64,000 bases of DNA. Origin: Malacoraja senta (lineage: Eukaryota). Position numbers and translations under genes: made by a program. The stretch lies in contig CM075995.1 of NCBI GenBank assembly GCA_038087875.1, forward strand, positions 10,728,001-10,792,000, given 5' to 3'. Shown here in pieces: positions 2,498-53,617 of the stretch (its first letter is position 1; each line of letters starts with the position of its first letter). Under the pieces are notes generated by a model. It made no database searches, was not told the origin of the DNA, and saw only the letters and a list, made by a program, of their open reading frames with translations.

Positions 2498-5400
2498 GTA
2501 GGTTCCATCACTGTGCAGCCACCCGCCGTATCACACTATTGTCTGGTTAGTGAGGCTACACCTGGACTTTAGTCTTCAGTTTGGACCACACTGTTACAAG
2601 AATGACATAATTATCCTCGAAAGAGTGCATGGAACATTTACGAGTGATCTTATTGGGGTGGAGAAATGGAATAGTTAGGGTGTTGTTCCCAGAGTAGGGG
2701 AATCAAGTTATAGAAGACATAGGTTTAAGGTGAGAGGGGAAATATTAAATAGGAACCTGAGGGGCAAAGTTTTCACACAAGGTGCTGTGTGTATATGGAA
2801 CGAGCTGCCAGAGGAAGTAATTGAGGCAGGTATAATAACAGCATTTTTAAAAAGCGCAGGTTCATGGATAGAAAAGGTTAAGAGGGGTATGGGAGAATCC
2901 TGGACAAATGGCTCTCGCACTGACGAGGCATTTTGGTCAGCATGGACTGGTTGGACTGAAGGGCCTATTTATGTGTTGTATGACTGACTCTATGATTTTT
3001 GGCACTACACAACAGTCAACCTGGCTTTGGATAGAAGAGCGATCCAGTCCAGCACCAAGAATCGGGCTGTTGCGAACCTTGCCATTGACGGCGACACATC
3101 CTCGAACATAGAGCTCTGTACTAGGACAAGTGTGGAGGACAACCCCTGGTGGGTGGTTGATTTAGAGGAGACGTTTATTGTGACGTTTGTCAGGATCACC
3201 AACAGTGTTCACCCACTCATGGATGCTGAGATCCGCGTTGGGAACAAAGGAAATATCAACAAACTGTGAGTATTCAGTGGCAATGGCTGGCTTGTTTCTA
3301 ACTGTATAAAGCAGGACTACGGTGGTCTTCCACAAAGTCCCATTGTTGCTGGTGCATTGTAGATAGCCTGTGCATTATAGATTGACTATGTTGATGTGGG
3401 TCATTGATGCAGAGCTGTGAACCTTTGAACCAGATGTGTGCACCAATGAACCAGGTGAATGGACAAAGGACCCCAAGGTGCAGATATTTGATCCAGATGG
3501 ATGGACTATTGATCCAAATGTTCGGACCATTGAACCAAAGATGAGAACCATTGCGCCAGAGGTTATGTCAGTTAATGTGAGGTGTGTACGATAGATCCAA
3601 ATTTGTGAACCATCGGTCTGGAGTTATGCACCATAAAACGAGAGGTTTGCACCAATAACCAAAGATGTGGACCATTTATCCAGATTTGAAATAAAGAACT
3701 GCAGCTGCTAGTTTCAATCGAATTTAGGCACAAAATGCTGGAGTAACTCAGCGGGATAGATACATAGATACATAGAAAATAGGTGCAGGAGTAGGCCATT
3801 CGGCCCTTCGAGCCTGCACCGCCATTCAATATGATCATGGCTGATCATCCAACTCAGTATCCCGTACCTGCCTTCTCTCCATACCCCCTGATCCCTTTAG
3901 CCACAAGGGCCACATCTAACTCCCTCTTAAATATAGCCAATGAACTGGCCTCAACTACCCTCTGTGGCAGAGAGTTCCAGAGATTCACCACTCTCTGTGT
4001 GAAAAAGTTTTTCCTCATCTCGGTCTTAAAGGATTTCCCCCTTATCCTTAAGCTGTGACCCCTTGTCCTGGACTTCCCCAACATCGGGAACAATCTTCCT
4101 GCATCTAGCCTGTCCAACCCCATAAGAATTTTGTACGTTTCTATAAGATCCCTTCTCAATCTCCTAAATTCTAGCGAGTATAAGCCAAGTCTATCCAGTC
4201 TTTCTTCATATGAAAGTCCTGACATCCCAGGAATCAGTCTGGTGAACCCTTCTCTGCACTCCCTCTATGGCTATAATGTCCTTCCTCAGATTTGGAGACC
4301 AAAACTGTACGCAATACTCCAGGTGTGGTCTCACCAAGACCCTGTACAACTGCAGTAGAACCTCCCTGCTCCTATACTCAAATCCTCTTGCTATGAAGGC
4401 CAACAATACCATTCGCTTTCTTCACTGCCTGCTGCACCTGCATGCTACTTTCAATGACTGGTGTACCATGACACCCAGGTCTTGCTGCACCTCCCCATTT
4501 CCTAATCGGCCACCATTTAGATAATAGTCTGCCTTCCCGTTTTGCCACCAAAGTGGATAACCTCACATTTATCCACATTATACTGCATCTGCCAAACATT
4601 TGCCCACTCACCCAGCCTATCCAAGTCACCTTGCAGTCTCCTAGCATCTCCTCACAGCTACACACTGCCCCCCATCTTAGTGTCAATCCGCAAACTTGGA
4701 GATGTTGCTTTCAATTCCCTCGTCCAGATCATTAATATAAATTGTAAATAGCTGGGGTCCCAGCAATGAGCCTTGCGGTACCCCACTAGTCACTGCCTGC
4801 CATTGTGAAAAGGACCCGTTTACTCCTACTCTTTGCTTCCTGTTTGCCAGCCAGTTCTCTATCCACATCAATACTGAACCCCCAATACCGTGTGATTTAA
4901 GTTTGTATCCTAATCTCTTATGTGGTACCTTGTCGAAAGCCTTCTGAAAGTCCAGATACAACACATCCACTGGTTCTCCCCTATCCACTCTACTAGTTAC
5001 ATCCTCAAAAAATTCTATAAGATTCGTCAGACACGATTTACCTTTCGTAAATCCATGCTGACTTTGTCCAATGATTTCACCACTTTCCAAATGTGCTGCT
5101 ATCCCATCTTTAATAACTGACTCTAACAGTTTCCCCACTACCGATGTTAGACTAACTGGTCTGTAATTCCCCGTTTTCTCTCTCCCTCCCTTCTTAAAAA
5201 GTGGGGTTACGTTTGCTACCCTCCAATCCTCAGGAACTACTCCAGAATCTAAAGAATTTTGAAAAATTATCACTAATGCATCCACTATTTCTGGAGCTAC
5301 TTCCTTAAGTACTCTGGGATGCAGCCTATCTGGCCCTGGTGATTTATCGGCATTTAATCCATTCAATTTACCCAACACCACTTCCCGACTAACCTGGATT

Positions 5401-8400
5401 TCACTCAGTTCCTCCATCTCCTTTGACCCGCGGCCCCCTGCTATTTCCGGCAGATTATTTATGTCTTCCTTAGTGAAGACGGAACCAAAGTAGTTATTCA
5501 ATTGGTCCGCCATATCCTTGTTCCCCATGATCAATTCACCTGTTTCTGACTGCAAGGGACCTACATTTGTTTTAACTAATCTCTTTCTCTTCACATATCT
5601 ATAAAATCTTTTGCAGTCAGTTTTTATGTTCCCTGCCAGTTTCCTTTCATAATCTATTTTCCCTTTCCTAATTAAGCCCTTTGTCCTCCTCTGCTGGTCT
5701 CTGAATTTCTCCCAGTCCTCTGGTATGCTGCTTTTTCTGGCTAATTTGTACGCAACATCTTTTGCTTTGATACTATCCCTGATTTCCCTTGTTATCCACG
5801 GATGCACTACCTTCCCTGATTTATTCTTTTGCCAAACTGGGATGAACATTTTTTGTAGTTCATCCATGCAGTCTTTAAATGCCTTCCATTGCATATCCAC
5901 CGTCAACCCTTTTAGAACTAATTGCCAGTCAATCTTGGCCAATTCACGTCTCATACCCTCAAAGTTACCTTTCTTTAAGTTCAGAACCGTTGTTTCTGAA
6001 TTAACAATGTCACTCTCCATCCTAATGAAGAACTCAACCATATTATGGTCACTCTTGCCCAAGGGGGCACGCACAACAAGTCTGCTAACTAACCCTTCCT
6101 CATTACTCAATACCCAGTCTAGAATAGCCTGCTCTCTCGTTGGTTCCTCTACATGTTGGTTTAGATAACTATCCCTCATACATTCCAAGAAATCCTCTTC
6201 CTCAGCACCCCTGCCAATTTGATTCACCCAATCTATATGTAGATTGAAGTCACCCATTATAACTGTTTTGCCTTTGTTGCACGCATTTCTAATTTCCTGT
6301 TTGATGCCATCCCCAACTTCACTACTACTGCTAGGTGGCCTGTACACAACACCCACCAGCGTTTTCTGCCCCTTAGTGTTTCGTAGCTCTACCCATACCG
6401 ATTCCACATCCTCCAAGCTAATGTCCTTCCTTTCCACTGCGTTAATCTCCTCTCTAACCAGCAACGCTACCCCACCTCCTTTTCCTTTCTCTCTATCCCT
6501 CCTGAATATTGAATATCCCTGGATGTTCAGCTCCCAGCCTTGGTCACCCTGGAGCCATGTCTCCGTGATCCCAACTATATCATAATCATTAATTGCTATC
6601 TGCACGTTCAACTCATCGACCTTATTACGAATGCTCCTTGCATTGAGACACAAAGCCTTCAGGCTTGTTTTTACAACGCTCTTACCCCTTATACAATTAT
6701 GTTGGAAAGTGGCTCTTTTTGATTTTTGCCCTGGATTTGTCTGCCTGCCACTTTTACTTTTCACCTTGCTACCTATTGCTTCCGCCCGCATTTTGCACCC
6801 TCTGTTTCTCTGCTTACCCATTTAAGAACCCCACCAACTCTTATTCTCTGTTTATTATTGTTTTCTTCTTTCCCCCCTACATGTTGGGTCTGAGTGCTTT
6901 CCTTCTCTGCCTCCTGCCTCACACACTGTCTAATAGCATTCTCTATTTGAGTCCCTCCCCCCAACCATTCTAGTTTAAAGTCTCCCCAGTAGCCTTTGCA
7001 GATCTCCCCGCCAGGATATCGGTCCCCCTCAGAGTTCAAGTGCAACCCATCCTTTTTGTACAGGTCGAACCTTCCACAAAAGAGGTCCCAATGATCCAGA
7101 ATTTGAATCCCTGCCTTCTGCACCAGTCCTTCAGCCACGCATTTATCCTCCACCTCGCTCCATTCCTACTCTCACTGTCGCGTGGCACAGGCAGTAATCC
7201 GAGATTGTTACCTTTGCTGTCCTTCTCTTTAACTCCCCTCCTAACTCCCTAAATTCTCCTTTCAGGACCTCTTCTCTTTTTTTACCTATGTCATTGGTAC
7301 CTATATGTATCACGACTTCGGGCTCCTCTCCTGCCCTTTCAGGATGTCTTGGACACGTTGAGATACATCACAGACCCTGGCACCAGGGAGGCAAACTACC
7401 ATCCGGGTCTCCCGACTGCGTCCACAGAATCGCCTGTCTGACCCCCTAACTATAGTGTCCCCTATTAATATTGCCCTCCTCTTCTTTTCCTTACCCTTCT
7501 GAGCAACAGGACCGGTCTCTATACCGGAGGCCCGGCCGCTGTCGCTACCCCCAGTAGGCTGTCCACCCCAACAGTGCTCAAACAGGAGTACTATTGTCAA
7601 GGTGTACAGCCACCGGGGTACTCTCTAGTCCCTGCCTGTGCCCCTTGCCTCTCCCAACCGTGATCCACTTGCCTGCCTACCTGTGGTGTTGGAGTGACCA
7701 CATCCCTGTAACTCCTCTCGATGACTTCCTCGCTCTCCCTGACCAGACGGAGGTCATCGAGCTGCTGCTCCAGGTTCCTAATACGGTCCATTAGGAGCCC
7801 CATCTCGATACACCTGACGCAGATGTGGACGTCTGGAGGGCTATCAGACTCCATGACTTCCCACATCTGACATCCAGAACAGTAAACTGCCCTGGCCCTC
7901 ATACTCCCCTTACCCTGGATAGAATACAAAACAAACTGCTACAATACAAAAACAAACTGCTAGAATACAAAACAAACTGCTAGAATACAAAACAAACGGC
8001 TAGAATACAAAACAAACTGCTAGAATATAAAACAAACTGCTAGAATACAAAACAAACTGCTACAATACAAAACAAACTGATACAATACAAAACAAACTGC
8101 TACAATACAGTACAATCAGCAGGGATTTGACTCCCAATCAGCTGCTCCCTCTTGTCTGCGTCCACCAATCAGCGGCTTCCTCAAACCCACTTGTTTTTGA
8201 AGTGGAACTTGGAACGTTACAGATTTGGGTTCCTTTTTAACTCCTACCGGTCGTGTGTAGCTCCTCCCTCTGCGATCTCTCCAACGGCTCTTGGGCCTCT
8301 GTAAGGAACAAGCCCCGCGCTCCTTTTTAACTCCTACCGTCGTGTGTAGCTCCTCCCTCTGCGATCTCTCCAACGGCTCTTGGGCCTCTGTAAGGAACAA

Positions 8401-11400: not shown

Positions 11401-14400
11401 GAACCAGGGGCCACAGTCTTAGAATAAAGGGGAGGTCATTTAAGACTGATGTGACAAGAAACTTTTTCACCCAGAGAGTTGTGAATTTATGGATTTCCCT
11501 GCCACAGAGGGCAGTGGAGGCCAAGTCACTGGATGGATTTAAGAGAGAGTTAGATAGAGCTCTAGGGGCTAGTGGAGTCAAGGGATATGGGGAGAAGGCA
11601 TGCATGGGTTATTGGTAGGGGACGATCAGCCATGATCACAATAAATGGCGGTGCTGGCTCGAAGGGCCGAATGGCCTCCTCCTGCACCTAGTTTCTATGA
11701 TTTTGTCAGGAGATGAGAAGCTGAGCAATGGTGAAATGTTGGATAAGGTAAAACTTTACTCTTGGAGTGCTAGCTGCAGGGTGATCTTATAGAGGTGTAT
11801 AAATACACGAGGAAAATAGAAAAGGGCGAGTGCACTGTCTATTGCACTGTGTAATGGAAGCAAAATATGAGGGCAAGATTAATATGATCTTGAAGGCCAT
11901 CCTTTTCACTCAGAGGGTGGTGGGTAGATGAAATGTGCTGTTAGAGGGGGTGGTTGCGCATAACAGCATTTAAAAGGCACTTGGACAGGTACATGGATAG
12001 GAAAGATTTAGAACGATATGGGCCAAATGCTGGCAAATAGAACTAACTTTGATGAGGAACCTTGGTCGGCATGAACGCATTAGGCTGAAGGGCCTATTTC
12101 TATGAACTATGACACAAGGTTTGGACCGTTGATCCAGAAGTGTGGACCATTGATGTAGAAGCACAGATAATTGACTCGGATGGATGGCCCATTGATCAGG
12201 TGTAGACCACAGAGCCACATGTTTGAACCATTGTCCCAGCTGAATGGACCATTGGTCCAGGAGTGTGGACCATTAATCCAGAAGTGTGGACATTGATCAA
12301 GAGGGGTGAATCATTGACCTAGATGAGTGTACAATAAATGAGTTGTGGATATTGACCAGAGGTGTGGAACATTGATCCAGAGGTTCGGGCTACTGTCCAT
12401 GCTGCCCAAGACTCCCATTATAGCTTCATTCCTTTTCCTGCGATTATCTCTTAATATCTTTTAAAATGTACCTCTCAAAGTCTTTTAAATGTTGTTATTG
12501 TACTCTGGCAGCTTATTCCATGGACCATCTTCTGTGTTGGTACGATTGTTCCTGAGGTGCCTGTTGAAGCTTTCCCCACTCAGCTTAGACCCTGTACTTC
12601 TTGATCCCCTACTTTAAACAACGCCTTATCTATTCCACTCATGATTTAATACACCTGTGGAACATGAGACACTGTTGTTCCAATTTGCTTGTGGTCTGCC
12701 GATGATCATGGCTGAGGATAGACAGGACAGTGTGGGAATGGGACGGGGAGTTGATCAGATCAGGGCGGCCAATTTGCGCAGAGCACAGGCTCCCTGTGGA
12801 TAGATCATTCGGTTTCAACAAAGACCAGCCACATTGTCAGCAGCAAGTGACCATCGTGCAGACGGATCTAATCTCTGAAGAAGTCTGAAGAAGGGTTTCG
12901 GCCCGAAACGTTGCCTATTTCCTTCGCTCCATAGATGCTGCTGCACCCGCTGTGTTTCTCCAGCATTTTTGTGTACCTTCTAATCTCCTTCATTGATGAT
13001 AATATGTCATCGACATTCTCGTCTGTTGAATACATTTCCAGGCCAGGTGATCATACTGTATCACCACCCATATACAGTGACTGAGTAATACAGCACAAAA
13101 AAGGCCCATTGGACAACAAACCAAAATGCCTCATCTAAACTACATCTGATGACCCATAACCCTCTATGCCTTTCCTATCCTTGTAACTGTTCAATTGTTT
13201 CCATGTACGATCAGTCCAAATAATATGATGATATCACCACCCATTGATGTTCATGTATGATCAGAGGTCATAACATAGCATCGCCACTCAGATTTTAACA
13301 CAGCCTCACCGTCCATGTATTAGAGATAGCCATAGAGTGATACAGTGTGGAAACGGGCCCAACTAACCCACACTGGCTAACAATGTCCCAGTTACACCAA
13401 TCCCATTTGCCTGCGCTTAGTCCATATCCCTCCAAAACTGTCCTCGCCCTGTACCTGTCTAACTGTTTCATAAATTATAGGATAGTCCCAGCCTCAACTA
13501 CTTCCTCTGGCAGCTTGTTCCATACACCCACCACCCAGTACATATATGACCAGACCAAATGATAATACGGCTTCACCACCCATATCTGTTCATGTATGTC
13601 CAGTCCCACTCAAACCCTGTCTTTCTCTGGGCATGGACGTTGTGCGTGACACCAGTACTGGCCTTGCCAATGCTTCACCAGCACATTCTGCTGTTGATGT
13701 GTATGGGTCAAAGTGTGGGGTCTGGCCCACAGATCCCCTCACAGCAAACGGGAGAAATGGCGGACAGACCCGCCCACTTAGTACTCGATCTCTGTCTCTT
13801 TCAGCTGTGGTACCATCCGGTCAATGAATGGATCAACGTTCACCTTCGCTTGTGGTGGTCTCAAGGGTCGATATGTGAATATCATGCTACCGGGCCTGGC
13901 TAAAATACTAAACCTGTGTGAGGTGGAGATCTACGGCTCTAAACCTCCAATCCTGGAAGGTGCAGGTGTGTTGGAATCCCATGCTGTAGCAATCTGTGTA
14001 CACCGTTGACTCCTCACTCAGTGGAGATGTGTGGTGACACAACTAACACACTGGGTGGCGATGTGCGCTGATACAACTAACACAGTAAGCGGGGACTTAC
14101 TGACACAACTTACACACTCACCCGGGGCGTGTGCTGAAACAACACACTCAGTTGGGACGTGTGCTGACACAACTAACATCCTTAGGGAGGACGTGTGCTT
14201 ACACAACTGACACACTCAGCAGGGACGAGTGCTGACACAAGTAACATTCTCTGTGCCTATGTCTGCTGGCACACAGCTAACATAAGCAATGGATGGGTAC
14301 ATGTACAAGAAATGTTCAGATGGATTCGGGCAAACACGGTAAATGGGATTAATTTATGTGGGGCCATGAACAGTCAACATGGATTTGTGCCTGGAAGGTC

Positions 14401-17400
14401 ATGTTTGACTAATCTTCTTGAATTTTTTGAAGAGGTTCCTAGGGAAATTGATGAGGGTAAAGTGGTGGATGTTGTCTATATGGACTTCAGTAAGACCTTT
14501 GACAAGGTTCCACATGGAAGGTTGGTTAAGAAGGTTCAATAGTTGGGTATTAATAGTGGAGTAGCAAGATGGATTCAACAGTGGCTGAATGGGAGATGCC
14601 AGAGAATAATGGTGGATAACTGTTTGTCAGGTTGGAGGCTGGTGACTAGTGGGGTGCCTCAGGGATCTGTGTTGGGTCCACTGTTGTTTGTCATATACAT
14701 CAATGATCTGGATGATGGTGTGGTAAATTGGATTAGTAAGTATGCAGATGATACTAAGATAGGTGGTGTTGTGGATAATGAAGTAGATTTTCAATGTCTA
14801 CAGAGAGATTTAGGCCATTTGGAAGATTGGGCTGAAAGATGGCAGATGGAGTTTAATGCTGATAAGTGTGAGGTGCTACATATAGGCATGGCAAATCAAA
14901 ATAGGACATACATTGTAAATGGTAGCCAATTGAGGAATGCAGTTGAACAGAGGGATCTAGTAATAACTGTTCCCTAAAGGTGGAATCTCATGTAGATAGG
15001 GTGGTAAAGAAAGCTTTTGGTGTGCTGGCCTTTATAAATCAGAGCATTGAGTATAGAAGTTGGGATGTAATGTTAAAATTGTACAAGGCATTGGTGAGGC
15101 CAATTCTGGAATACGGTGTACAATTTTGGTCGCCAAATTCTCGGAAAGATGTCAACAAAATAGAGAGAGTACAGAGGAGATTTACTAGAATGTTGCCTGG
15201 GTTTCAGCACCTAAGTTACAGAGAAAGGTTGAACAAGATAGGTCTTTATTCTTTGGAGCGCAGAAGGTTAAGGGGGGACTTGATAGAGGTCTTTAAAATT
15301 ATGAGAGGCGTAGCAGGGCTCTCGCTTAACTTTTTTTCCCTGTTGCCAGCCGGGCAACCTTGACAGCNNNNNNNNNNNNNNNNNNNNNNNNNNNNNNNNN
15401 NNNNNNNNNNNNNNNNNNNNNNNNNNNNNNNNNNNNNNNNNNNNNNNNNNNNNNNNNNNNNNNNNNNNNNNNNNNNNNNNNNNNNNNNNNNNNNNNNNNN
15501 NNNNNNNNNNNNNNNNNNNNNNNNNNNNNNNNNNNNNNNNNNNNNNNNNNNNNNNNNNNNNNNNNNNTTTGTGATAAAGTGATTCAAGGGATGGTAGGGG
15601 TAAGCCAATAATTTTTGATGCTCTGTTGATGATGCGCTGTAATTTCTTCCGGGAGAGTGAGTCGAGACTGCCGAACCAGACTGTGATGGATGAAGTGAGG
15701 ATGCTTTCAATGATGGCTGTATAGAAGCGGAGCATGAGATGAGATCTTACTCTGAACTTCCTTAGCTGTCGGAGATGGAAAAGTCTTTGCTGGGCTTTCC
15801 CATAAATGTGGTCTGCGTTTGTCCTCCATTTGAGGTTGTTGCTGATGTGGGTTCCAAGGAGTTTGAATGTGTCAGTGATGGAGATGGATTCATCATTAAT
15901 GAGCACAGGAGTTTTGGGGGATGGCTGGCGCCTTGGGTCGATGATAATTTCTTTTGTTTTTGATGAATTGAGTAAGAGGTCATGGTCTGTGCACCAGGTC
16001 ACTGCTTGGTTGACCTGTGCACGGTATTCAGTTTCTTGGTTGTTGGTGATGAATCCTATGATGGTTGAGTCGTCCGCGTACTTTTACAGGTTGACGGAGC
16101 TGTGGTGGGATGTGAGCTGGTTTGTGTAAAGGGAAAATAGCCAGGGTGAGAGAACACAGCCTTGTTCTCTCAACCTGGCCCCCCATTCTTCTTGAATGTG
16201 GGGATCAGTATGGGATGGATGGGGGGGATCAGTATAGGATGAATGTTCCCCCCATTCTCCTTGAATGTGGGGATCAGTATGGGATGGATGGGGGGGATCA
16301 GTATAGGATGAATGGGGGTTCAGTACAGGATGAATGGGGGTAGACAAAAATGCTGGAGAAATTCAGCGGGTGAGGCAGCATCTATGGAGCTAAGGAATTA
16401 GGCAACGTTTCGGGTCGAGACCCTTCTTCAGACTGTTCCCCCCATTCTTCTTGAATGGGGGGATCAGTACAGGATGGATGGGGGGGTCAGCACAGAATGA
16501 ATGGGGGGGATCAGTACAGGATGAATGGGGGGGGTGGTCAGGACAGAGTGGATCGGAGGGTCTATGCAGGATGAATGGGAGATCACTACAGGATGAATGA
16601 GGGGATCAGTACAGGATGAATGGGGAATCAGTAAAAGATGAATGGGGAGATCACTACAGGATGGATGGGGGGGATTGGTGCAGGGTAAATGGAGGGTGGG
16701 TCAGTACGGGATGAATGGGAGGATCAGTGCAGTATGAATGGGGGGAGAAGTGCAGGATGGATGGGAAGTGGGGTCAGTACAGGATGAATTGGGGGACCAG
16801 TGTAGGATGGATGGGGGGGTGGCAGGAGAATCAATGTGAGGTGGGTAGGGTGGTGAATACATTGGGGGGGGTAGATGGGGAGGGGAGCACAGGGGATGTC
16901 AGTGAGGACTGAATAGAGGAGGGAATGGGGATCAGTGCGGGATGGAGAGGAGGGGTCCCAGGATAAGAGGGGTGGAGGGGGGCGTACAAGAGAGAGAAAG
17001 AGAGAGAAAGAGGGGGGGAAGAGGCAGAGGAGGTGGGGAGGAAGGAAGGAAGGTCAGCGCTCCTCGGACAACATCGCCCCGCTGCCTTGGCCATCCCTGT
17101 CCAACGCCAAAGTGCCGCCGCCTCCTCGCCACCGCCTCCCCTCCTCCGCCAGCCGACAGGAAGGTGCGGGGCCGAGCGGTGCAGCTCATAGATCTTATAT
17201 GATCTGTCGTGCAGCTGCTTCAGACGTCGGAAGGAGACCTCCCTCTCCCTCCCTCCCTCCCGGCCTCGGCGTGCGAGAGGGGTTGGTTTGAAAGCGCCGT
17301 TAGCGGAGTTGCAAGCAGCGACCGTTATCAGGGCGATAGGAGCCGCTGATGGCAAATCCGCAAAAGGTGCTTTCAAATCCGCAAAACACCCCCTACAGCA

Positions 17401-20400
17401 TGCCGAGGCCAGGAGGAGGGGGGCGGGGAGAGGGAGAGGGAGGCCTCCTTCCGCCGGACGGGGTGCGGGAGGAGGAGGCGGTGGAACCGCTGTCGTGGCC
17501 GCTGTTCGGGGCCCGTCATTCGCCCTGACCCTTCGTCACCATGCACCTAGTATCTTTGACCCGCAATCAAAGATACTAGAGGAATATAGCCGCCGACACG
17601 AAACGTCAGTTCCTATGCGCCGGAGATGCTGCCTGACCCGCGGAGTTACTCCAGTTTTTTGTGTCTACCGGTATAAACCAGTATTTGGGTGCCAAGCCGG
17701 GCAAAATGAGTCGCCGTTTAGGTTGCCCGGGGGCACTTTCTGTGGACAATGGCAGCCGGGCAACCGCTAATTTCAAGCCCTGGATAGACAGAGTTGACGT
17801 GGATAAGCTTTTCCATTGAGAGTAGGGAAGATTCAAACAAGAGGACTTGATTGGAAAATTATTGGACAAAAGTTTAGGGGTAACATGAGGGGGAACTTCT
17901 TTACTCAGAGAGTGGTAGCTGTGTGAAATGAGCTTCCAGTGGAAGTGGTGGAGGCAGGTTCGATTTTATCAGTTAAAAATAAATTGGATAGGTATATGGA
18001 CGGGAAAGGAATGGAGGGTTATGGTCTGAGTGCAGGTAGATGGGACTAAGTGAGAGTAAGTGTTCGGCACGGACTAGAAGGGCCGAGATGTCTTGTTTCC
18101 ATGCTGTATGGTCTTGGTTGGCATGGGACATTTGGACCAAAAGGCCTGTTTCTGTGCTGTGGACCCGTCAAGACCCAACACTCATTCAAACACCTTTGCA
18201 GAGCATAGTTTAGGCAAGTGGGAGGTGCAGCGAGACCTGGGCGTCCTTGTACACTGGTCACTGAAAGTTGGCGTGCAGGTACAGCAGGCAGTGAAGAAAG
18301 CTAATGGAATGTTGGCCTTCATAACAAGAGGATTTCAGTATAGGAGTAAAGAGGTTCTTCTGCAGTTGTATAGGGCTCTGGTGAGACCACATCTGGAGTA
18401 TTGTGTACAGTTTTGGTCTCCTAATTTGAGGAAGGACATCCTTGTGATTGAGGCAGTGCAGCGTAGGTTCAAGAGATTGATCCCTGGGATGTCGGGACTG
18501 TCATATGAGGAAAGATTGAAAAGACTAGGAGTAGGCTTGTATTCACTGGAGTTTAGAAGGATGAGGGGGATCTTATAGAAACATATAAAATTATAAATGG
18601 ACTGGACAAGCTAGATGCAGGAAAACTGTTCCCAATTTTGGGTGAGTCCAGAACCAGGGGCCACAGTCTTAGAATAAAGGGGAAGCCATTTAAGACTGAG
18701 GTGAGAAAAAACTTTTTCACCCAGAGAGTTGTAAATTTGTGGAATTCCCTGCCACAGAGGGCAGTGGAGACCAAGTCACTCGATGGATTTAAGAGAGAGT
18801 TAGATAGAGCTCTAGGGGCTAGTGGAATCAAGGGATATGGGGAGAAGGCAGATACTGGTTATTGATTGGGGACGATCAGCCATGATCACAGTGAATGGCG
18901 GGGCTGGCTCGAAGGGCTGAATGGCCTCCTGCAACTATTTTCTATGTTTCTATTAATTATTTTAATACAGATAACGCTGTAGCTATTCAGTACACAGGGA
19001 AACCCACAATCCTCAACCCTCACTGAGATGATATTGTATTGGCATGTTTATTGTTGTCACTGTGTAAACTTTGCCTGCATGATCAAATCACACTTTTCAC
19101 GAGAACAATTAAGCCATGCACACGTACTGCAGGTGGTGCAAAGAGAAAATTCCCAGCGTTCCAAATATAGTGTTACAGCATTATGGTATTACATTTACAG
19201 ATAATTTGCAGATGAAAAAAAAATGCAAGGTCCACAGTCATGTAGATTGGAAGGTCAGAACTACACCTTAACTTAAGGGATGTGCATTCAGTAGTTTGAT
19301 TTTTTTTTTTTAAAGGGGGAGGAAGCTATTTCTGAATCTGACACAAAGGTAATTAATTGCTTCTGGGAGGGTTGTGTTTAATGTAGTGCAGCATGTCTGA
19401 GGAGCCTGAAGGTTGTTTGGAAGAAGCTGTCTGCTGGGCCTTCTTCCCGATGGTAACAGTGAGATTAGAGCGTGGCCAGGGTGGTGTGGGTCTTTAAATG
19501 ATGTTGGCTACCTTTTAGAGGCAGCGCCTCCTGTATGTCCCTGTGGGGAGGTTAGTACCTGTGATGGACCGGGCAGTGTCCGACACTTTCAGTAGCCTCC
19601 TTCGTTCCAGTACATTTGAGTTATTGAACCAGGCCATGATGCAACCAGTCAATATGCTCATTGATAATCAGCCAACTCCTGCTTTATCACAAGTCAGTAT
19701 GTTGCAGGACATTACTCGCCTCTAACTTGAATTCCCTTGCATCCATGACGCTTGCTGAAGAGTAATTTATTGTTCCATCTGCAGAGAACCTGGCACTGAA
19801 AGGGAAGGCGGCCATGTCAAGCATCTATCGCAGATCGTTTGCCTCCTACGCCATTGATGGTAACATAAACTCAATAATGCGTATAGGACCATGTACGCAC
19901 ACAGGAAAAGAGAAAGACCCATGGTGGCGGCTCGATTTAATGGAAAAGCACATCATATCATCGATAAGAATCACCAACCGACAGGACCGTTAGTATTGTG
20001 TGCAAATCTGGTTGCCCCATTTTTGGAAGTTTAGAGAGGCTTTGTAGAGGTTGCAGAAGACATTTATGTAAAGCTGGTGGATATAAAATGCTGGGGTAAC
20101 TCAGCAGGTGAGGCAGCATCTCTGGAGAGAAGGAATAGGTAACGTTTCGGGTCGAGACCCTTCAATGTAAAGTTGCTTGGAACTGGGGGCATTATCTCTA
20201 TGGTGAGTTTATGTAAAGCTGCTTGAGTAGAGAGAATTAGCTCCATGGAAAGTTTAGGCAGATGTGCATTGTTTTCTCTGGATCATCAGAGGTTGGGTCG
20301 TGACTTGGCATAAGTATATGAAATTATTCCCTCGGGTGGAAATGTCAAAAAGTAGAAGCCACAACTTTAAGGCGAGAAGGGGGAAGTTTAAAGGAGGTGT

Positions 20401-23400
20401 GCTAGCCCAGTTTTTTAGGCAAAGAGTGGTGGGCGCCTGGAACACACTGCTGCGGGTGGAGGCGGAGGCAAATATTATCGTGTCATTTAAGAGGCTTTCA
20501 GTTGGGGACATGGATAAGCAAGGAATTGAAATATACAGCACTTGCAGGGAGATAAGATTAGTTTAACGACATAATTTTCGGCAGGGAGATCATGGTTGAA
20601 GGTCCTGTCCCTCTGCTGTACTGTTGTACTTTCTATGTTCCATGCAGCCTGGTGTGAGAAACGGATCCTGGGAGCAGAGATCCACATTGGGAACTCGCTG
20701 ATGAAAAATGGGAATATGAACAGCCTGTAAGTATTCACAGCAACACTGATAGTTTGTAAGATGCATTGGATTAACAGTGACTTGCTCTATGGTTTCACAA
20801 CTGACTTAATGATGGAAACAGAGGGTGTGGTGGAAGGACAATATTCATTCTAGAGGTCTGTGACCAATGAAGTTCCACAGTGATCAGTGCTAGGATGTCT
20901 GCGGTTTATAGAAACATAGAAACATAGAAAATAGGTGCAGGAGTAGGTCATTCGGCCCTACGAGCCTGCACCGCCATTCAATATGATCATGGCTGATCAT
21001 CCAACTCAGTATCCCGTACCTGCCTTCTCTCCATACCCCCTGATCCCCATAGCCACAAGGGCCACATCTTACTCCCTCTTAAATATAGCCAATGAACTGG
21101 CCTCAACTACCTTCTGTGGCAGAGAGTTCCAGAGATTCACCACTCTCTGTGTGAAAAATGTTTTTCTCATCTCGGTCCTAAAAATTCCCCTTATCCTTAA
21201 ACTGTGACCCCTTGTTCTGGACTTCCCCAACATCGGGAACAATCTTCCTGCATCTAGCCTGTCCAACCCCTTGAGAATTTTGTACATTTCTATAAGATCC
21301 CCCCTCAATCTTCTAAATTCTAGCGAGTACAAGCGAGTACAAGCCGAGTCTATCCAGTCTTTCTTCATATGAAAGTTCTGACATCCCAGGAATCAGTCCG
21401 GTGAACCTTCTCTGCACTCCCTCTATGGCAAGAATGTCTTTGCTCAGATTAGGAGACCAAAACTGTACGCAATACTCCAGGTGTGGTCTCACCAAGACCC
21501 TGTTCAACTGCAGTAGAACCTCCCTGCTCCTATGCACAAATCATTTTGCTATGAATGCTAACATACCATTCGCTTTCTTCACTTCCTGCTGCATCTGCAT
21601 GCTTACTTTCAATGACTGGTGTACCATGACACCCAGGTCTCGTTGCATCTCCCCTTTTCCTAATCGGCCCCCATTCAGATAATAGTCTACTTTCCTGTTT
21701 TTGCCACCAAAGTGGATAACCTCACATTTATCCACATTATACTGCATTTGCCATGCATTTGCCCACTCAACCAACCTATCCAAGTCACCCTGCAGTCTCC
21801 TAGCATCCTCCTCACAGCTAACACTGCCCCGCAGCTTCGTGTCATCCGCAAACTTGGAGATGTTGCATTCAATTCCCTCGTCCAAATCATTAATATATAT
21901 TGTAAATAGCTGGGGTCCCAGCACCGAGCCTTGCGGTACCCAACTAGTCACTGCCTGCCATTGTGAAAAGGACCCGTTTACTCCTACTCTTTGCTTCTAG
22001 TCTGCCAGCCAGTTCTCTATCCAATACTGAACCCCCTATACCGTGTGCTTTAAGTTTGCATACTAATCTCTTATGTGGGACCTTGTCGAAAGCCTTCTGA
22101 AAGTCCAGATATACCACATCCAATGGTTCTCCCTTATCCACTCTACTAGTTACATCCTCGAAAAATTCTATAAGATTCGTCAGACATGATTTACCTTTCA
22201 TAAATCCATGCTGACTTTGTCCAATGATTTCACCACTTTTCAAATGTGCTGCTATCCCATCTTTAATAACTGACTCTAGCAGTTTCCCCACTACCGATGT
22301 TAGACTAACTGGTCTGTAATTCCCTGTTTTCTCTCCCTCCCTTTGTAAAAGTGGGGTTTCATTAGCTACCCTCCAATCCTCAGGAACTACTCCAGAATCT
22401 AAAGAGTTTTGAAAAATTATCACTAATGCATCCACTATTTCTGGGGCTACTTCCTTAAGTACTCTGGGATGCAGCCTATCTGGCCCTGGGGATTTGTCGG
22501 CCTTTAATCCATTCAATTTACCTAACACCACTTCCCGGCTAACCTGGATTTCACTCAGTTCCTCCATCTCATTTGACCCCCGGTCCCCTGCTATTTCCGG
22601 CAGATTATTTATGTCTTCCTTAGTGAAGACATAACCAAAGTAGTTAATCAATTGGTCTGCCATGTCCTTGTTCCCCATGATCAATTCACCTGTTTCTGAC
22701 TGCAAGGGACCTACATTTGTTTTAACTAATCTGTTTCTCTTCACATATCTATAAATACTTTTGCAGTCAGTTATTATGTTCCCTGCCAGTTGTCTTTCAT
22801 AATCTATTTTCCCTTTCCTAATTAAGCGCTTTGTCCTCCTCTGCTGGACTCTGAATTTCTCCCAGTCCTCTGGTAGGCTGCTTTTTCTGGCTAATTTGTA
22901 TACTACATCTTTTGTTTTGATACTATCCCTGATTTCCCTTGTTATCCACAGATGCACTACCTTCCCTGATTTATTCTTTTGCCAAACTGGGATGAAAAAT
23001 TGTTGTAGTTCATCCATGCAGTCTTTAAATGCCTTCCATTGCCTATCCACCGTCAACCCTTTAAGGATCAATTGCCAGTCTATCTTGGCCAATTCACGTC
23101 TCATTCCCTCAAAGTTACCTTTCTTTAAGTTCAGAACCCTTGTTTCTGAATTAATTATGTCACTCTCCATCCTAATGAAGCTCAACCATATTATGGTCAC
23201 TCTTGCCCAAGACTGCTAACTAACCCTTCCTCATTACTCAATACCCAGTCTAGAATAGTCTAGAATAGAATGATATGAATTAATGAATCGAATGTGAACG
23301 TAGATGGTTTGGTTCATAAATTTGCAGGTGACACCAAGATTGCAGGGTTGGCTAATTCTGACGAAAGCTATCAAAGGATGCAACAGGATATAATAATAAT

Positions 23401-26400
23401 AATACATTTTATTTATGGGCGCCTTTCAAAAGTCTCAAGGACACCTTACAAAGTTTAACAAATACTAGAAACATGTAAGCGGAATGAAATAAATAGTAAA
23501 GACATCACGAGTACACAAATTAAAGAGAGAATTCAATCCAAAAACAAAAATCAAAAACACAATATGGAAGAGAGAGCAGCGGCTGCTAAAGCGCACCAGC
23601 GTCCACTCTCCCCTCCGGCAGCCGAGATACAGATGTGGGCAGATCATTGGTAGATGGAGTTTCCTCTGAGTAAGTTTGAGATGTTGCACTTTGGGAGGAC
23701 AAATGTAAGGGGAGCCAATTAACGCTAAAATCATAAGAATCATTTGTGTACAGAGGCTCTTGTGGTCCACCTCCATAACTCCCTAAAAGTGTCAACACAA
23801 GTAAATAGGTTAAAAAATAAGGTACATTATATGTTTGCTTTCAAAAGTCAGGTCATTGAGTACACAGAGGGTGATGGATGCCTAGAACACGTTGCTGGGA
23901 ATGGTGATGCAGGCAGAATTGATAGTGTTTACGCTGCTTTTGGCGAGGCACATTGTTGTGCAGTTAATGGAGGAATATGGATCATGTGCAGGCAAAGGAG
24001 ATTAGTTGAACTTGGCATCAAGTTCGGCACAAAGGACCTGTTCCTCTGCTTTACTATTCTATATTCCACGATCTCAGTACGCAGCAGCCTTGCCGGCGCC
24101 CATGGTTCAGAATATTGTGCAATCAGGGGCACGGACTGTTCAATTAGATCGTAGGGTCGCGGAAACTATTCACAGTGAGATCCTCGAGACACGGACGCTG
24201 TTCAAAATGAGATCATAGTCATAGAGAGATACAGTGTGGAAACAGGCCCTTCGGCCCAACTTGGCCACACCGGCCACATGTCCCAGTTACACTAGTCCCA
24301 CCTGCCGCGTTTTGTCCATATTCCGCCACATCTGTCCTATCCATGTGCTTGGTAGGAAAGAACTACAGATGCTTGTTTAAATCGAAGGTAGACACAAAAT
24401 GCTAGAGTAACACAGTGGGACAGGCAGAATCTCTGGAGAGAAGGAATGGGTGACATTTCGGCTCGATACCCTTCTTCACACTGTACTTGTCTAACTGTGG
24501 GATAGTTTGGGATAGTCCCTGCCTCAACTGCATCCTTTGGCAGCTTGTTTCATACACCCACCCCACTTTGTGTGAAACAGTTATCCTCAGATTCCTATTA
24601 AATCTTTTCCCCTTCAGCTTAAACCAATGTCCTCTGGTCCTCGATTTACGTACTCTGGGCGAGAAACTCTGCAACGATCCGATCTATTCCTCTCATGATT
24701 TTATACACCACAATAAGATCACCCCTCATCCTACTGTGCTCCAAGGAATAGAATCCCAGCCTACTCAACCTCTCCCGATAGCTCGGACACTCTAGCCCTG
24801 GCAACATCCTTATAAATCTTTGCTGTACTGTTTCCAGCATGACAATATCTTTCCTATAACATGGTGCCCAGAACCGAACACAATAGTCTAAATGTGGCCT
24901 CATCAACGCCTTATACAACTGCAACATGACCTCCCAAATTCTGTACTCAATAATCTGACTGATAAGGATAATGTGCCAAATGCCTTTTTGACCGCCCTAT
25001 CTACATGCGACTCCACCTTCAAGGACATATGGACCTGCACTCTTATATCCCTTTGCTCTACAACACTCCCCAGAGCCCTACCATTCAGTATGTAGGTCTT
25101 GCCTATGTTAGACTTCCCAAATTGCAACACCTCACATATGGTATTAAATTCCATCAACCATTCCTAAGCCCTGCTGGCTAACCAATCAAGATCCTGCTGC
25201 AATTTTTCACAACCATCTTCACTCTCTGCAAAACCACCCCCTTTTGTATCATCAGCAAACTTGCTAATCTTGCCATGTATGTTCTCATCCAAATCATTAA
25301 TGTAGATGACAAACAGTAACATGCCCAGCAACGAACCCTGAGGCACACCACTAGTCACAGGCCTCCAGTCCGAGAAGCAACTTTCCGCCATCACCCTCTG
25401 CTTCCTTCCATGAAGCCAATTTTGTTCCCATTCAGCTATCTCTCCTTGGATCCCATGTGATCTAACCTTCCAGAGCAGACTACCATGTGAAATCTTGTTG
25501 AATGATTTGCTGAGGTCACAATGATATCTCATCTCTTTCAGCTGTGCCACCATCCGTACGCCTGATAAAAGGGTCACCTACCACTGTAACGGTCTCGTCG
25601 GTCGGTATGTGAATATCATAATTCCCGGCTCGAGGAGAATCCTAACACTATGTGAGGTGGAAGTCTTTGGTACAAAGATCCTGTCATCGAAAGGTATAGA
25701 ACATACAAACATAGAAAAATAGGTGCAGGTGTAGGCAATCCAGCCCTTTGAGCTAGCACCGCAATTCAATATGATCATGGCTGATCATCAAAAATCAGTG
25801 TCCCCCGTTCCTGCTTTTCCCCCCATATCCCTTGATTCCTTTAGCCCTAAGAGCTAAATCTAACCTCTCCCTTGAAAACTTCCAGTAAGTTGGCCTTCTG
25901 TGGCAGAGAATTCCATAGATTTACAACTCTCTGTGTAAAGAAGTATTTCCTCATCTCAGTCCCAAATGGTCTATCACTTATTGTTCTGGACTCACCAACA
26001 TCGGGAACATTTTCCCTGCATCTAGCCTATCCAATTCTTTAAGAATTTTATATGCTTCCATAAAATCCCCTCCCATCCTTCTAAATTTCAGTGAATACTA
26101 GCCCAGTTGCCCCATTCGTTCATCATATGTCAGTCCCGCCATCCCAGGAATTAACCTGGTGAACCTAAGCTGCACTCGTTCCATAGCAATAATGTCCTTC
26201 CTCAAATTAGGACACCAAAATTGCACACAATACTCCAGGTGCGATCTCACCAGGGCCCTGTACAACAGGAGTAAAACCACCTTGCTCCTAAACTCAAAAT
26301 AAGGGGTAGGCCATTTAGAACGGAGATGAGGAAAAACATTTTTACCCAGAGAGTTGTGAATCTGTGGAATTCTCTGCCTCAGATGGCAGTGGAGGCCGAT

Positions 26401-29400: not shown

Positions 29401-32400
29401 AGGATGGCCTGTCCTCTGGTCGGTTCTTCTACATATTGGTTTAAAAAACCATCCAGTATACATTCCAGGAAATCCTCCTCATCAGCGCTGCTACCAATTT
29501 GGTTGGCCCAATCTATATGCAGATTAAAGTCACCCATGATAACCGCTGTACTCTTGCGACACACATCCTTAATTTCCTGCTTGATGCTGTCCCCAACCTC
29601 CCTACTGCTGGTTGGTGGTATGTAGACAACTCCAACAAGCGTTTTCAGCCCCTGGCTATTTCGCAATTCTCCCCATACCGATTCTACAGCATCCAAGCTA
29701 ATGTCTCTCCTTGCTGTTGCATTAATCTCCTCTTTAACCAGGAATGCCACTCCACCTCCTCTTCCTTTCTGTCTATCCTTCCTGAATATCCCATGCATGT
29801 TTCGCTCCCAGCCCTGGTCATGTCTCCGTAATTCCAACTATATCATATTCTTTAACTACTAACTGCACATTTAATTCATTTAATTCTTATTACGAATGCT
29901 CCTTGCTCTAAGGCACAAAGCTTTCAGGTTTGTTATTCTTATCTCCCTTCTACCTTTTGCTTCTGTCCTCCTTTTATGTCTCTCTGTCTCCTTGCATTGG
30001 TTTCCACCCCCCTGCCCTGTTAGTTTAAATGGGACCTTTCCTACACTCTCCTTCACGTTGTTGACACCATCTACCCCACCCCTCCCACACCCGTACTGTT
30101 TAGTTTAAACCCACCCGTGCAGCACTAGCAAACCTGCTTACTAGAATGTCGTCCCCCCTCCAATTAAGGTGCAACCCGTCCCTTTTGAACAGGTCACCCT
30201 GCCCCAGAAGAGATCCCAGTGATCTAGAATTCTAAAACCCTGCCCCATCCACCAACTCCTCAGCCACACATTCAGATCCCCTATCTCCCTGTTCCTCCCC
30301 TCACTAGCACGAGGTAATGGAAGCAACCCGGAAATAACCACCCTAGGTCCTGCTTTTCAGCCTCCTACCTGGTTATCTACACTCACATTGTAGAACATCC
30401 TTCATCTTCTTATGCACACCATTTGTTTCTTAATGCACAACTGCATCTGGCTGTTCACCTTCCCTCTGAGGATGTTCTTAAGTTGGTCTGAGACATCTTG
30501 GACCCTGGCACCAATGAAGCAACACACCTTCCCCGACACACCTTACATCTCCTGTCCGCACCTCTGACAATGGAGGGGTTGGAAACTTTCAGTGCACATC
30601 CTTACCCATCCCTCAACTGGTTGTTGCCCCGAGTGGACTGTGATCACCTCAATGACTGACTGATCCTCTGCTCAACAGTAAATCTGGCTTTGGGAAAGAA
30701 GGCCACCCAGTCCCATGCCAAGGACCTCGTCGTTGCTAACCGAGCCATTGACGGCAATAAGAACAGCAACGCAAAGGAGGGTTCCTGCACGCTATCTGAC
30801 ATCGGCAACAATCCGTGGTGGATGGTTGATTTAAAACAACCCTACTTTGTAACTTTTGTGCGAATCACCAACAGAATGGACTGCTGCGCAGATCACCTCC
30901 TGGGAGCAGAGGTTTATCTGGGTAACGATGGCTACGACAGCAGATTGTAAGTATTAAATGTCGAAGGTTGGGGACCCCAGATGTTCCCGCAGAGTCCCAA
31001 CTCATACATTGTCCATTTCCCTCCATTTCATAGAATCATACATGATCATAACAAGCACTTCAGGCCAACATGTACGTGCTGACTGAAATGGCCATTCTCA
31101 GATAGTCCTACTTGCCACATCTGTCCCATATTCCTCTGAACCTCTCCTATCCATGTCCCTATCCAGGTATCTTTTAAATGTTGTTGTTGTAACAGCCTCA
31201 ACTACCACCTCGGAAAACTCGTTCCATATACCCACCACCCTCTGAGTGAAAAGTTTGGCATTAGTTTCCTTGTAAATCTTTCCCCTTTCACCTTGAACTA
31301 TTTTCTAATTTTCCGAACCTGGGGAAAATATCTGTCCATTCACCCAATCAACAAAGACTCACACCGCACCGATCTTGCTGCTACCAGTGGAAGGAATGTA
31401 GAGGAGTCTAAAAACCGGGACCTCCCGGTTCAAGAACAGCTTCTGCCCATCAACTATCAGGCGCCAGAACATTGCACAACTCTGACCGCAGGAACTATAA
31501 TCTTCTACTGATTGTGTTTTTGGCTGCACTATGGCCTTCGATTTTACACTATTGTGGTTACTTGGTATTGCTGTTATCAATTCATAGAATTATTGATTAT
31601 ATATATATCTGTGTGTTACTGTGTTTACGAGCCCGTTAAGCTACAACAAGTAAGAATTTTGTTATTCTATTGCTGGTACATATGATAATTAAACAATCTT
31701 GACTCCATATATTACGATGGTCACGATAGCCAATGATGGGCAACAGAGTCGGTGCGCCCTGCCTGTCCCTGGGACCTGGATTCAGAAGACCGCAGAACCT
31801 CAACACTCGATTCTCATTGTGCAACTTTTTAATCTCCTTCAGATGTGGAGTTGTCGAAGTTGCCACCGCGGATACACTCTCCTTAAATTGTGGTGGCCGT
31901 ATTGGAGATTATGTGCACGTCATCATCCCGGGAGTGAATAAAAGCTTGGCTCTCTGCGAGGTGGAGGTCATTGGCTTGGGAGACAAGAGGTGAGACAGTA
32001 ATACCGTGAACCATTACGTGCCGACATGTTACAAGTTGTCCAGACCTGGCAATGGTTTTATGGGAAGTGGTTTTAGGAAAAAGTAGATCTGTGGACTGAA
32101 CATATTCAAAACTCACTGAGATGTGAGATTGGCACAGTATTGGTTTATTATTGTCACGCATTCTGAGATAGGTGAGAGAGGGACTGTGCCCACATATGCA
32201 CACATGGACGATATGTACCAGAGTACATAGTATAGCATTACAGAGACCGGGAAAATGCAAGTGGGTTCAAGAATAGAGGGAGGCAAATGGTTGAAAGCCA
32301 TTAGCCAGTTATCAATGTGCAGGAAGGAACTGCAGATGTTGGTTTAAACCGAAGATACGCACAAAATGCTGGAGTAACTCAGGACGTTTTGGGTCAAGAC

Positions 32401-35400: not shown

Positions 35401-38400
35401 AAGAAGACACTAATGGGAGTCATCTATACGCCCCCAAACAGTAGCCTGGGTATAGGGTGCAATTTGCGGCAGGAGTTAAATTGGCATGTAACAAAGATAA
35501 CCAAGGTGGTTATGGGAGATTTCAATATGCAGGTAGACTGGGAAAATCAGGTTGGTTCTGGACCCCAAGAAAGTGAGTTTGGAGAGTGCCTCCGGGATGG
35601 ATTCTTAGTGCTGCTTGTACGGGAGCCTACCAGAGAGAAGGCATTTCTGGATTTAGTATTGTCTAATGAACTCAAGCAAAAGGAACCGGCAGGTGTTGGT
35701 GAACATAATATGATACATTTTAACCTGCAATTTGAGAGTGAGAAGGTTAAATCAGAAGTGTCAGTGTTGCAGTTGAACAAAGGGGACTATGAAGGCATGA
35801 GAGAGGAGCTGGCCAAAATCAACTGGAAAACCATCCTAGCAGGAATGATGGTGGAAATGCAATGGCAGGAATTTCTGGGCATAATCCAAAAGGTGCAGGA
35901 TCATTTCATTCCAAAGAGGAAGAAAGATTCTAAGGGGATTAAGAGGCAATCGTGGCTGACAAGGGAAGTTAGGGATGAAATGAAACTAAAGTTATAGGTG
36001 TATAACATTGCAAAGAGTAGCAGGAAGCCAGAGGATTGGGAACTTTCAAAGGACAACAGAAGGTAACAATAAAGGCAATACGGGCTGAAAAGTTAAAGTA
36101 CGAACGTAAGCCGGCCAAAAAGATAAAGAAGGATAGTAAAAGCTTCGTCAGGTACAGTGCATTCAGAAAGTATTCAGACCCCTACACTTTTTCCACATTT
36201 AGTTATGTTACAGCCTTATTTTAAAATGGATTAAATTCTTTTTTCTACACACAATACCCCAGAATGAAGAAGTGAAAACAGGTGTTTAGGCATTTTTGCA
36301 AAGTAATTTTTTTTTTAAACTTGAAATATCACATTTACATAAGTATTCAGACCCTTTACTATGACACAAAATTAAGCATAAATTCATCCTGTTTCCATTG
36401 ATTATCCTTGAAATGTTTCTACAACCAGTGGTAAATTAAATTGATTGGACATGATTTGGAAAGGCACACACCTGTCTATATAAGGTCCCACAGTTGAGGT
36501 GCACGTCAGAGCAAAAACCGAGCCATGAAGATGAAGGAATTGTCCGTAGACCTCCGAGACAGGATTGCGTCGAGACACAGATCTGGGGAAGGGTATAAAA
36601 CAATTTCTACAGCATTGCAGGTCCTGAAGAGCAGAGAGGCCTCCGTCATTTTAAATGGAAGAACTTTGGAACCACCGGGACTCTTCATAGAGCTGGTTGC
36701 CCGGCCAAATTGAGCAATCGGGGTAGAAAGGCCTTGTCAGGGAGGTGACCAAGAACCTGATGGTCACTCTGATAGAGCTCCAGAGTTCCTCTGTGGAGAT
36801 GGGAGAACCTTCCAGAAGGACAACTATATCTGCAGCACTTCACCAATCAGGCCTTTATGGTAGAGTGGTCAGATTGAAGCCGCTCCTCAGTAAAAGGCAC
36901 ATAACAGCCCGCTTGGAGTTTGCCAAAAGGCACCTAAACAAGATTCTCTGGTCTGATGAAACCAAGATTGAACTGTTTGGGCTGAATGTCAAGCATCACC
37001 TCTGAAGGAAACCAGGCACAGCTCATCACCTGGCCAATACCATACCTATGGTAAAGCATGGTGATGGCAGCATCATGCTGTGGGGATGTTCTTCAGCGGC
37101 AGGAACTGGGAGACTAGTCAGGATCAAGTGAAAGATAAAAGGAACAAAGTACAGCATGCTCCCTGATGAAAACTTGCTCCAGAGCGTTCTGGACCTCAGA
37201 CTGAGGCGGAGGTTCACCTTCCAACAGGTCAACAACCCTAAGCACACAGCCAACACAGCACAGGAGTGGCTTTGTGACAAGTATGTGAATGTCCTTGAGT
37301 GGCCCAACCAGACATCTCTGGAGGGACCTGAAAATAGCTGTGCATCTACGCTCCCCATCCAACAGAGCTCGAGAGGATTGTGAGAAATTACACAAATACA
37401 GGTGTGCCAAGCATGTAGTGTCATACCCAAGAAGACTTGAGGCTGTAATCACTGCTAATGGTGCCTCAACAAAGTACTGAGTAAAGGGTCTGATGTGGCA
37501 GTTCCTGGGGAGTAGGCCACTCCCTGGTTCATCCCCCTCGGCACTTGATGGACAGGTCCGGGGGCGGCTTCCAGCTACGAAGATAAGAGCAGGGATTTTT
37601 GGCGCGACACCAGTTTTCAGTCTCTCACTGAAGTGGAGAGTAGTGTGCTGTGCTCATTAAACCCTCTACAGAATTTGCCTGGCTTCTCGCCGGACATCCG
37701 GTCGGACAACCGCCTGCAGCTTACCAGCGACCCTTTCACCGACATGCAGTCAGTGGGCGAGCGCACCGATCTACTTTGGATGGCCCGTCAGCAGCCCCTG
37801 GATGCGCTGGAGATCCTACCGATGGCGCCGGGCAGCGGACAGCAGGTCGGTGCTTCAATTGACAGCGTCTCCGCCGCTCCTAAACTCCCTCTACGGTGGG
37901 ATCTGGCCGCCAGCTATGCCAGCGTCTCAGCTATATCAGTCAATATAGCCAAATGCCGTTTCGGGGTGACGTCCTGGGACACCACGTACCTCCGCAGGGT
38001 GCGGTGCCGCTCCCGGCCAAGGTAGACGCTGTGCGCCCGTTTCCACGACCGGCCACCTTGAGGGGCCTCCAGGAATTTGTCGGGATCATGGCCTCCAACC
38101 ACCGTTTTGTACCGTCCGCAGCCAGGATCATGCGCCCGCTGTTTCACCTCATGGCGGGCAAACGAAAGGATGTCGAATGGACAGACAAAGCGGTGGCGGC
38201 GTTCCACCAGGCCAAGGAGGCCCTGGCTAGGGTTACGATGCTCGTGCACCCACGGGCGGATGCACCAATCGGGCTGACGGTCGACGCTTCCGATGTAGGT
38301 GTTGGAGCTGTGCTAGAGCAGCTGTTCGACGGGCGTTGGAGGCCTCTGGCCTTCTTCAGCAGGCACCTCAGCGGCACTACAGTGCCTTTGACCGTGAGCT

Positions 38401-53515: not shown

Positions 53516-53617
53516 GACAGAGGTATGACAGTGCCAAGAATTCCGTGACCTACCTCCACTTCCTAACTTATCCCCATGAACCAACGGAGACAACTGTAAC
53601 TCTGTAAACTACTAGAA

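Follow-up and report, generated by a model that had tools for sequence, protein, structure and literature searches.

The 64,000-nucleotide (nt) stretch of Malacoraja senta DNA analysed here (the window; C19:10728001-10792000 on contig CM075995.1, with coordinates given as window positions unless marked C19 or L) carries exons of a gene encoding a multi-domain F-type lectin. Six F-type lectin domains were found in this gene, normally with two exons each. The first exon of the fifth domain, placed in domain 3 by an initial annotation of the window, is interrupted by a 659-nt insert with GT..AG ends. This split was confirmed: on re-reading, the coordinates of the insert (19989-20647), its 5' end GTTAGT, its 3' end TTCTATG-TTCCATG-CAG and the TAG at 19991-19993 that stops the unspliced frame all hold. 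Both halves keep their native outer splice sites and, when joined across 19988/20648, read without a stop. The paralogous exons 3016-3265 and 30679-30946 are uninterrupted, as had been noted.

Genome-wide, 72 matches to the lectin exon were obtained and this exon alone is split at this site; the remaining partial or broken matches (seven loci plus one designated W1) are frameshifted, stopped or divergent, and none is split. Contigs from DNA run X1 cross both insert junctions with 0 differences, and the insert is therefore not an assembly error; X1 is DNA-like and possibly comes from the source sample itself, and its listed joints do not speak against an empty allele. A metagenome scan for the junction gave 0 matches.

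The insert is a decayed LINE

Repeat homology to a sense-oriented long interspersed nuclear element (LINE) spans the insert from 19992 to about 20644, in agreement with the initial view that the segment is LINE nearly from end to end and that its tail supplies the pyrimidine tract. As just three bases are unmatched at each end (GTT and CAG), there is no room for an intron at this site before the insertion. The family displays 5' truncation, a short tandem 3' tail and a high copy number (about 194,775 first-look candidates, a rough count), and the two heptamer units that close the LINE part of the insert resemble the tails of other copies. The element is evidently old. It is 75% identical to the family majority, itself drawn from copies chosen by likeness to the insert (other copies, 66-89%), and it shows 8 gaps against well-kept copies; it also has the insert of its own reported earlier, an arm of a miniature inverted-repeat transposable element (MITE) flanked by duplicated LINE pieces.

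The affiliation of this LINE was approached indirectly. Its own fragment matched no family when searched against Pfam, and an ESM Atlas search returned unnamed clusters only, with no named family. However, a copy of its subfamily is 42% identical to the end of open reading frame 2 (ORF2) of a sister subfamily (E 8e-32), and related open reading frames in the window match RVT_1 and Exo_endo_phos, a chain that indirectly places the insert's family with the apurinic endonuclease-reverse transcriptase (APE-RT) LINEs. We provisionally label the element CR1 on the basis of its ORF2 motifs and tail and of the abundance of the CR1 group, whose elements make up 22-34% of elasmobranch genomes (bioRxiv 10.64898/2026.01.13.699120).

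Predicted splice signals

The LINE runs from base 4 of the insert to its tail, so that AGTAT occupies donor positions +4 to +8 and the tail forms the pyrimidine tract. The new donor pairs with the U1 RNA of this genome at 7/11 positions, all on the intron side, and the native donor at 3265 likewise pairs at 7/11. Together, the GT..AG ends, the U1 pairing and the pyrimidine tract are those of a U2 intron, and we consider it very likely that the insert is spliced out at all. The LINE 3' end is also free of AG for at least 25 bases in 16 of 21 further copies whose tail anchor is complete.

An extra residue in the ligand loop and its counterpart in Rhinoraja

Removal of the insert restores the frame with one extra codon, as first described, made up of the C of the left exon and the two bases after the acceptor. 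Seven residues separate Asp from GAE in 552 of the 557 loops read in 259 proteins and eight in 3/557; among these three is P0075, a predicted protein of Rhinoraja longicauda (XP_078280558.1), whose loop reads R-F-D-H-C-C where the spliced product of the window reads R-Q-D-P-W-C. Domain 5 groups with domain 3 of P0075 at 100/97 in the careful tree. An empty site had been expected in related skates; the single skate orthologue found, that of Rhinoraja, instead seems to share the event. Among the matches listed (in one search 120 of 941), the close ones were P0075 and Narcine P0001 only; the searches were lossy, one of them missing P0075, and do not show absence from Amblyraja or Leucoraja.

We favour as likely the reading that a single LINE insertion gave rise to the intron before the two skate genes parted, and that the intron was then kept by selection. 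Under this proposal, a CR1-type LINE would have retrotransposed in the sense orientation into the lectin exon, where the Asp codon of the sugar-binding R-x-D-C-C loop ends, before the split between this gene and that of Rhinoraja. The exon would have retained one C from the 5' junction, where exon GACC resembles the LINE sequence just upstream of the match, a likeness that may be microhomology. At the 3' side a duplicated GAC would have given its G to the acceptor and its AC to the exon; C plus AC would then form CAC, encoding His as in Rhinoraja, later turned into Pro here by one change. Of 34 paralogous contexts, 32 have GAC as the Asp codon; duplication of GAC would thus place AC behind the acceptor and yield His, the residue of Rhinoraja. 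Since GCA GAC is common (19/34 contexts) and matches the right junction at 10/12 bases, the target duplication may have measured 3 or 6 bases (GAC or GCAGAC). Either would fit better than the duplication first suggested (cag-gac-c on the left, cag-cc on the right), which is doubtful because it needs a left CAG at insertion, whereas ATG stands at that place in an old junction copy at 63.6 kb and Phe in Rhinoraja. Met or ATG before the Asp equivalent also occurs in domain 6 and, by residue, in Narcine domain 5. From then on, the spliceosome would have removed the 659 nt efficiently enough for a full-length multi-domain lectin, with selection keeping both halves while the intron decayed and gained its MITE. 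The initial term 'intronisation' does not apply, as in its strict sense it denotes an exon turned into an intron (PMC12124190).

The same extra residue could reflect two events. The codon would have come first, for instance by duplication of Asp followed by Asp to His, and would be the sole feature that Rhinoraja shares; the LINE would have landed inside it later, in this lineage, and been spliced cleanly, leaving an intron still born of a LINE but younger and scarless. A plain Asp duplication does exist in one unrelated loop (P0090), Rhinoraja is known from a protein model alone, and dating by decay is loose. Yet this sequence of events calls for a rare codon gain (3/557) and for an insertion without target duplication that struck precisely this one among about 94 codons, where the favoured reading needs a single event, and we judge it quite unlikely.

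A copy of the junction at 63 kb

A further LINE copy on the minus strand (about 62844-63700) contains, inverted between contiguous LINE parts, about 95 nt of a lectin exon end together with the CCGTT junction. The exon fragment scores 73 against domain 5, no more than 46 against 7 other exons and no more than 30 in 3900 random windows. In its simplest reading, the fragment likely arose by repair with the intron junction, 44 kb away, as the template; the copied junction is 78% identical, and the junction is therefore old. The host copy also holds a full palindromic MITE with a flanking 13-nt direct repeat. A duplicated gene was rejected as the source of the fragment, which has neither the second exon half nor the tail, as was a mobile lectin-LINE chimera, genome searches having given no further copy of the junction.

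Copying could instead have run the other way, the 62.8-63.7 kb copy first capturing the exon fragment and then supplying the LINE piece of the intron by DNA repair rather than retrotransposition. The exon end and the CCGTT junction occur at both loci, and each has CTGTTGT close to the tail, as does one other copy. Over the 3' LINE part, however, the number of derived sites common to the two (10 in 338 columns) shows no excess and is in line with that of other copies, the intron ends precisely in tail units that the 63-kb copy does not have, and the opposite direction, from intron to 63-kb element, makes a simpler account. We find this origin hardly credible.

Retention and identity of the split domain

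The split domain retains 38 of the 41 conserved columns defined on 956 domain hits, the three lost being Q10M, V60I and C69W. Neutral simulation of decay to the level of the LINE left means of 22.5 (d 0.30) and 27.1 (d 0.20) columns, with 0/3000 runs reaching 38; at d 0.12, 38 columns were reached in 35/3000. The open frame survived simulated decay in 37, 207 and 1465 of 20000 runs under three settings (0.2%, 1% and 7%). The branch of domain 5 since the Rhinoraja split, at 0.20 in the careful tree, lies inside the 0.10-0.24 of its neighbours. The conserved columns were thus kept far past neutral expectation, and we infer that both halves were retained by selection.

Domain 5 matches solved F-type lectin structures (3cqo, E 2e-36; 1k12, E 8e-13) and scores above the PF22633 cut-off. 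Its His, Arg and Asp align with those of AAA, with 26 residues between His and Arg as in AAA numbering. F-type lectins carry a fucose motif H..R-x-D-X4-(R/K) and a calcium motif h2DGx (PMC5712786); the spliced domain 5 has K at X4+1, R one position further and AIDGN, so that both motifs can be read in it. As it is the only one of the gene's six domains with the motif His, domain 5 is probably the gene's fucose-binding domain. An AlphaFold model of P0075 shows its domain 3 as a beta sandwich; the loop block 351-360 has a predicted local distance difference test score of 65 and is uninformative on binding.

These data bear on whether domain 5 is dead or mostly bypassed, its three exons being skipped in frame or transcripts ending at the TAG, with GT and AG present by chance. 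Whole-domain skipping would keep the frame (phase 1 to phase 1), the donor is weak and faces competing sites, one Cys is lost, and identity to the orthologue is the lowest of the gene. Against this stand the 38/41 columns, the improbability of an open frame after such decay, the match of both halves to Rhinoraja, and the frameshift in domain 1, a probably lost domain of the same gene. Such a bypass therefore seems very unlikely to us.

Several observations nevertheless count against the single, early LINE insertion that we favour. P0075 is a predicted model, and an intron in Rhinoraja is deduced from protein. Narcine domain 5, which is without the extra residue, is sister in the quick tree (92) but of uncertain placement in the careful one, and the empty state therefore rests on paralogues. 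The decay of the LINE, gauged against copies picked for their likeness to the insert, cannot by itself date the insertion before the Rhinoraja split. The new donor is unpaired with U1 at -3 to -1, and donors nearer to consensus lie inside the insert at 20108, 20139 and 20203; transcripts using them would contain the TAG, and a fraction may be lost in this way. The CA before the acceptor G has no explanation in the proposed mechanism. Identity to Rhinoraja is lowest in the split halves (68% and 57%; other lectin exons, 69-81%). Finally, the vicinal Cys-Cys pair is Trp-Cys in domain 5 and Cys-Cys in Rhinoraja; this fucose-contacting pair is common but not universal, and its loss is known in tandem domains (PMC5712786).

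On balance, we read the insert as a real, old and probably functional LINE-born intron in a coding exon. The proposal of the initial annotation, that a LINE created the intron and selection kept it, is strengthened by the Rhinoraja residue, by a gene that is unbroken as far as its stop and poly(A) signal and by the conserved columns; its splicing component stays a prediction from sequence.

Gene architecture and neighbouring features

Lectin-exon identity to Rhinoraja is 57-81%, and a run of 574 open codons, colinear with P0075 to the stop, results when the predicted exons are spliced from domain 3 through the last one (Table 1). The predicted last exon lies 21.5 kb downstream; of 4189 AG sites scored, it shared the highest value, and it alone had the stop in place. 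So short a terminal exon in the Rhinoraja model suggests that the 3' end of this model was backed by RNA.

Table 1. Features of the lectin gene, the insert and the 63-kb copy in the window
Feature	Position	Strand	Remarks
Second exon of domain 3	2340-2497	+	
First exon of domain 4	3016-3265	+	Uninterrupted
Second exon of domain 4	13805-13965	+	
5' half of split lectin exon (domain 5)	19785-19988	+	AIDG calcium motif, His and R-x-D of fucose motif; 46/68 residues identical to P0075
Predicted donor, ACC/GTTAGTAT	19986-19996	+	AGTAT is LINE sequence, GTT made by the junction; LINE match from 19992
Predicted phase-1 GT-AG intron	19989-20647	+	Sense-oriented, 5'-truncated LINE, from repeat homology, ends and frame
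5'-most LINE piece, late ORF2	19992-20075	+	92% over 38 nt against two other copies
One arm of high-copy palindromic MITE-like element	20076-20163	+	Later insertion; full palindrome at 63240-63445
Remaining LINE: short duplicated piece, ORF2 end, 3' untranslated region, two heptamer tail units (20631-20644)	20164-20644	+	343/458 columns agree with family majority
AG-free pyrimidine-rich tract (LINE 3' end) and acceptor CAG	20600-20647	+	15/20 pyrimidines, highest among AG sites scanned in 19989-20726
3' half of split exon	20648-20726	+	Closes with native donor GTAAGT; 13/23 identical to P0075
Second exon of domain 5	25542-25693	+	36/51 identical to P0075
First exon of domain 6	30679-30946	+	Uninterrupted
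Second exon of domain 6	31843-31989	+	
Predicted last exon	53494-53623	+	7 codons, then a stop that is in register with that of Rhinoraja; AATAAA at 53618
Decayed copy of domain-5 exon end and CCGTT junction	63553-63650	-	Within another LINE copy; 75/96 identical

Elsewhere in the gene, the domain 4 exon 3016-3265 has no R-x-D-C-C loop owing to a deletion common to Rhinoraja, and likely encodes a non-binding spacer domain. The domain 1 exon (L048:8033-8286) is frameshifted near its start and sits on a very long branch; it is probably a dead exon, or else an assembly error. Differences from P0075 amount to 19-43% per exon, compared with about 8-22% for array exons, pointing to fast evolution or hidden paralogy. 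An assembly gap of 200 bases lies at 15368-15567, in the intron upstream of the split exon. The introns also hold long, fairly young antisense LINE copies with endonuclease and reverse transcriptase frames (4686-6821, 21947-23215 and 39077-41866, all minus strand), and frames in the last intron (37884-38594 and 41798-43206, plus strand) resemble, by eye, polymerase and integrase pieces of long-terminal-repeat retrotransposons.

On the same contig, C19:10251745-10517494 (L014-L041, L061 and L062) contains 55 F-type lectin exon matches over about 270 kb, many of them near-identical and spaced at about 2 kb. This array holds far more tandem domains than the 2-5 reviewed for fish and frogs, and similar long models exist in Rhinoraja and Amblyraja. 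Lectin exons elsewhere on the contig are 89-92% identical in protein to three Amblyraja domains, at most 92% to Rhinoraja and only 46-58% to Narcine, which identifies the animal as a skate. Further lectin exons with a stop or frameshift occur at L063, L064 and L065 (C4015 and C19:9.52 Mb).

Comparison with known systems

Intron gains are rare in vertebrates, and their sources are mostly unknown. In the present case the sequence shows the donor element, the two junctions, a codon that was likely duplicated, dozens of paralogous exons with no interruption and a scar that a second skate probably shares, and the path from damaging insertion to fixed intron is therefore testable. The event also altered an innate-immune lectin at one residue of its ligand loop.

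F-type lectin domains each span two exons in striped bass (PMC12221842). AAA (1k12) and MsFBP32 (3cqo) have the same domain and the same two-exon plan (PMC12221842), whereas domain 5 here has three exons and one more residue in its loop, with Trp in place of the first vicinal Cys.

Introns are known to be gained through insertion of transposable elements: a review from 2012 counts 35 such cases, from rice, maize, Drosophila and Oikopleura (PMC3443670). Introners resemble our case in that an inserted element becomes a spliceable intron, with splice sites carried by it or co-opted from the target (PMC12130899, PMC9860276), but they form families of several similar introns, whereas one old event is seen here. 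Non-LTR (long terminal repeat) elements make up about 5% of classified introners (PMC12130899); the 14 non-LTR rows of that study cover a sea urchin, an oomycete, fungi, dinoflagellates and a haptophyte, with no vertebrate among them, and Amblyraja and Leucoraja have 0 introner families each. The term 'CR1' gave 0 matches in 12 of the 14 files of its supplement.

CR1 might be a slow, low-yield maker of introns in sharks and rays, a tentative extension that we consider doubtful. Its pyrimidine-rich and mostly AG-free 3' end and the U1-matching AGTAT in ORF2 would, with so many copies, allow sense insertions into exons to be occasionally spliced out and fixed. Were this true, introner screens, which seek young families of look-alikes, would be overlooking a class of old coding introns born of LINEs, with the present intron as its first member.

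In a plant SINE (short interspersed nuclear element) case, a non-LTR retroposon in coding sequence likewise gave a single new intron; ours involves a vertebrate LINE and a one-codon scar seemingly common to a second species. Alu-induced introns in human 3' untranslated regions also arose from a retroposon in a vertebrate exon, with splice sites partly derived from the element, but the four cases are untranslated and alternatively retained (PMC2394776), whereas this one is coding and lies in a binding loop. Introns 3 and 5 of notothenioid slc26a2 are vertebrate coding introns of transposon-like sequence; they are described as putative elements with direct and inverted repeats and, in the text consulted, are given no LINE assignment (PMC12357937). 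No CR1- or LINE-born vertebrate coding intron was found in the literature searched, most subscription papers being outside its scope. Introns born of transposable elements are as such already known, including non-LTR ones in non-vertebrates.

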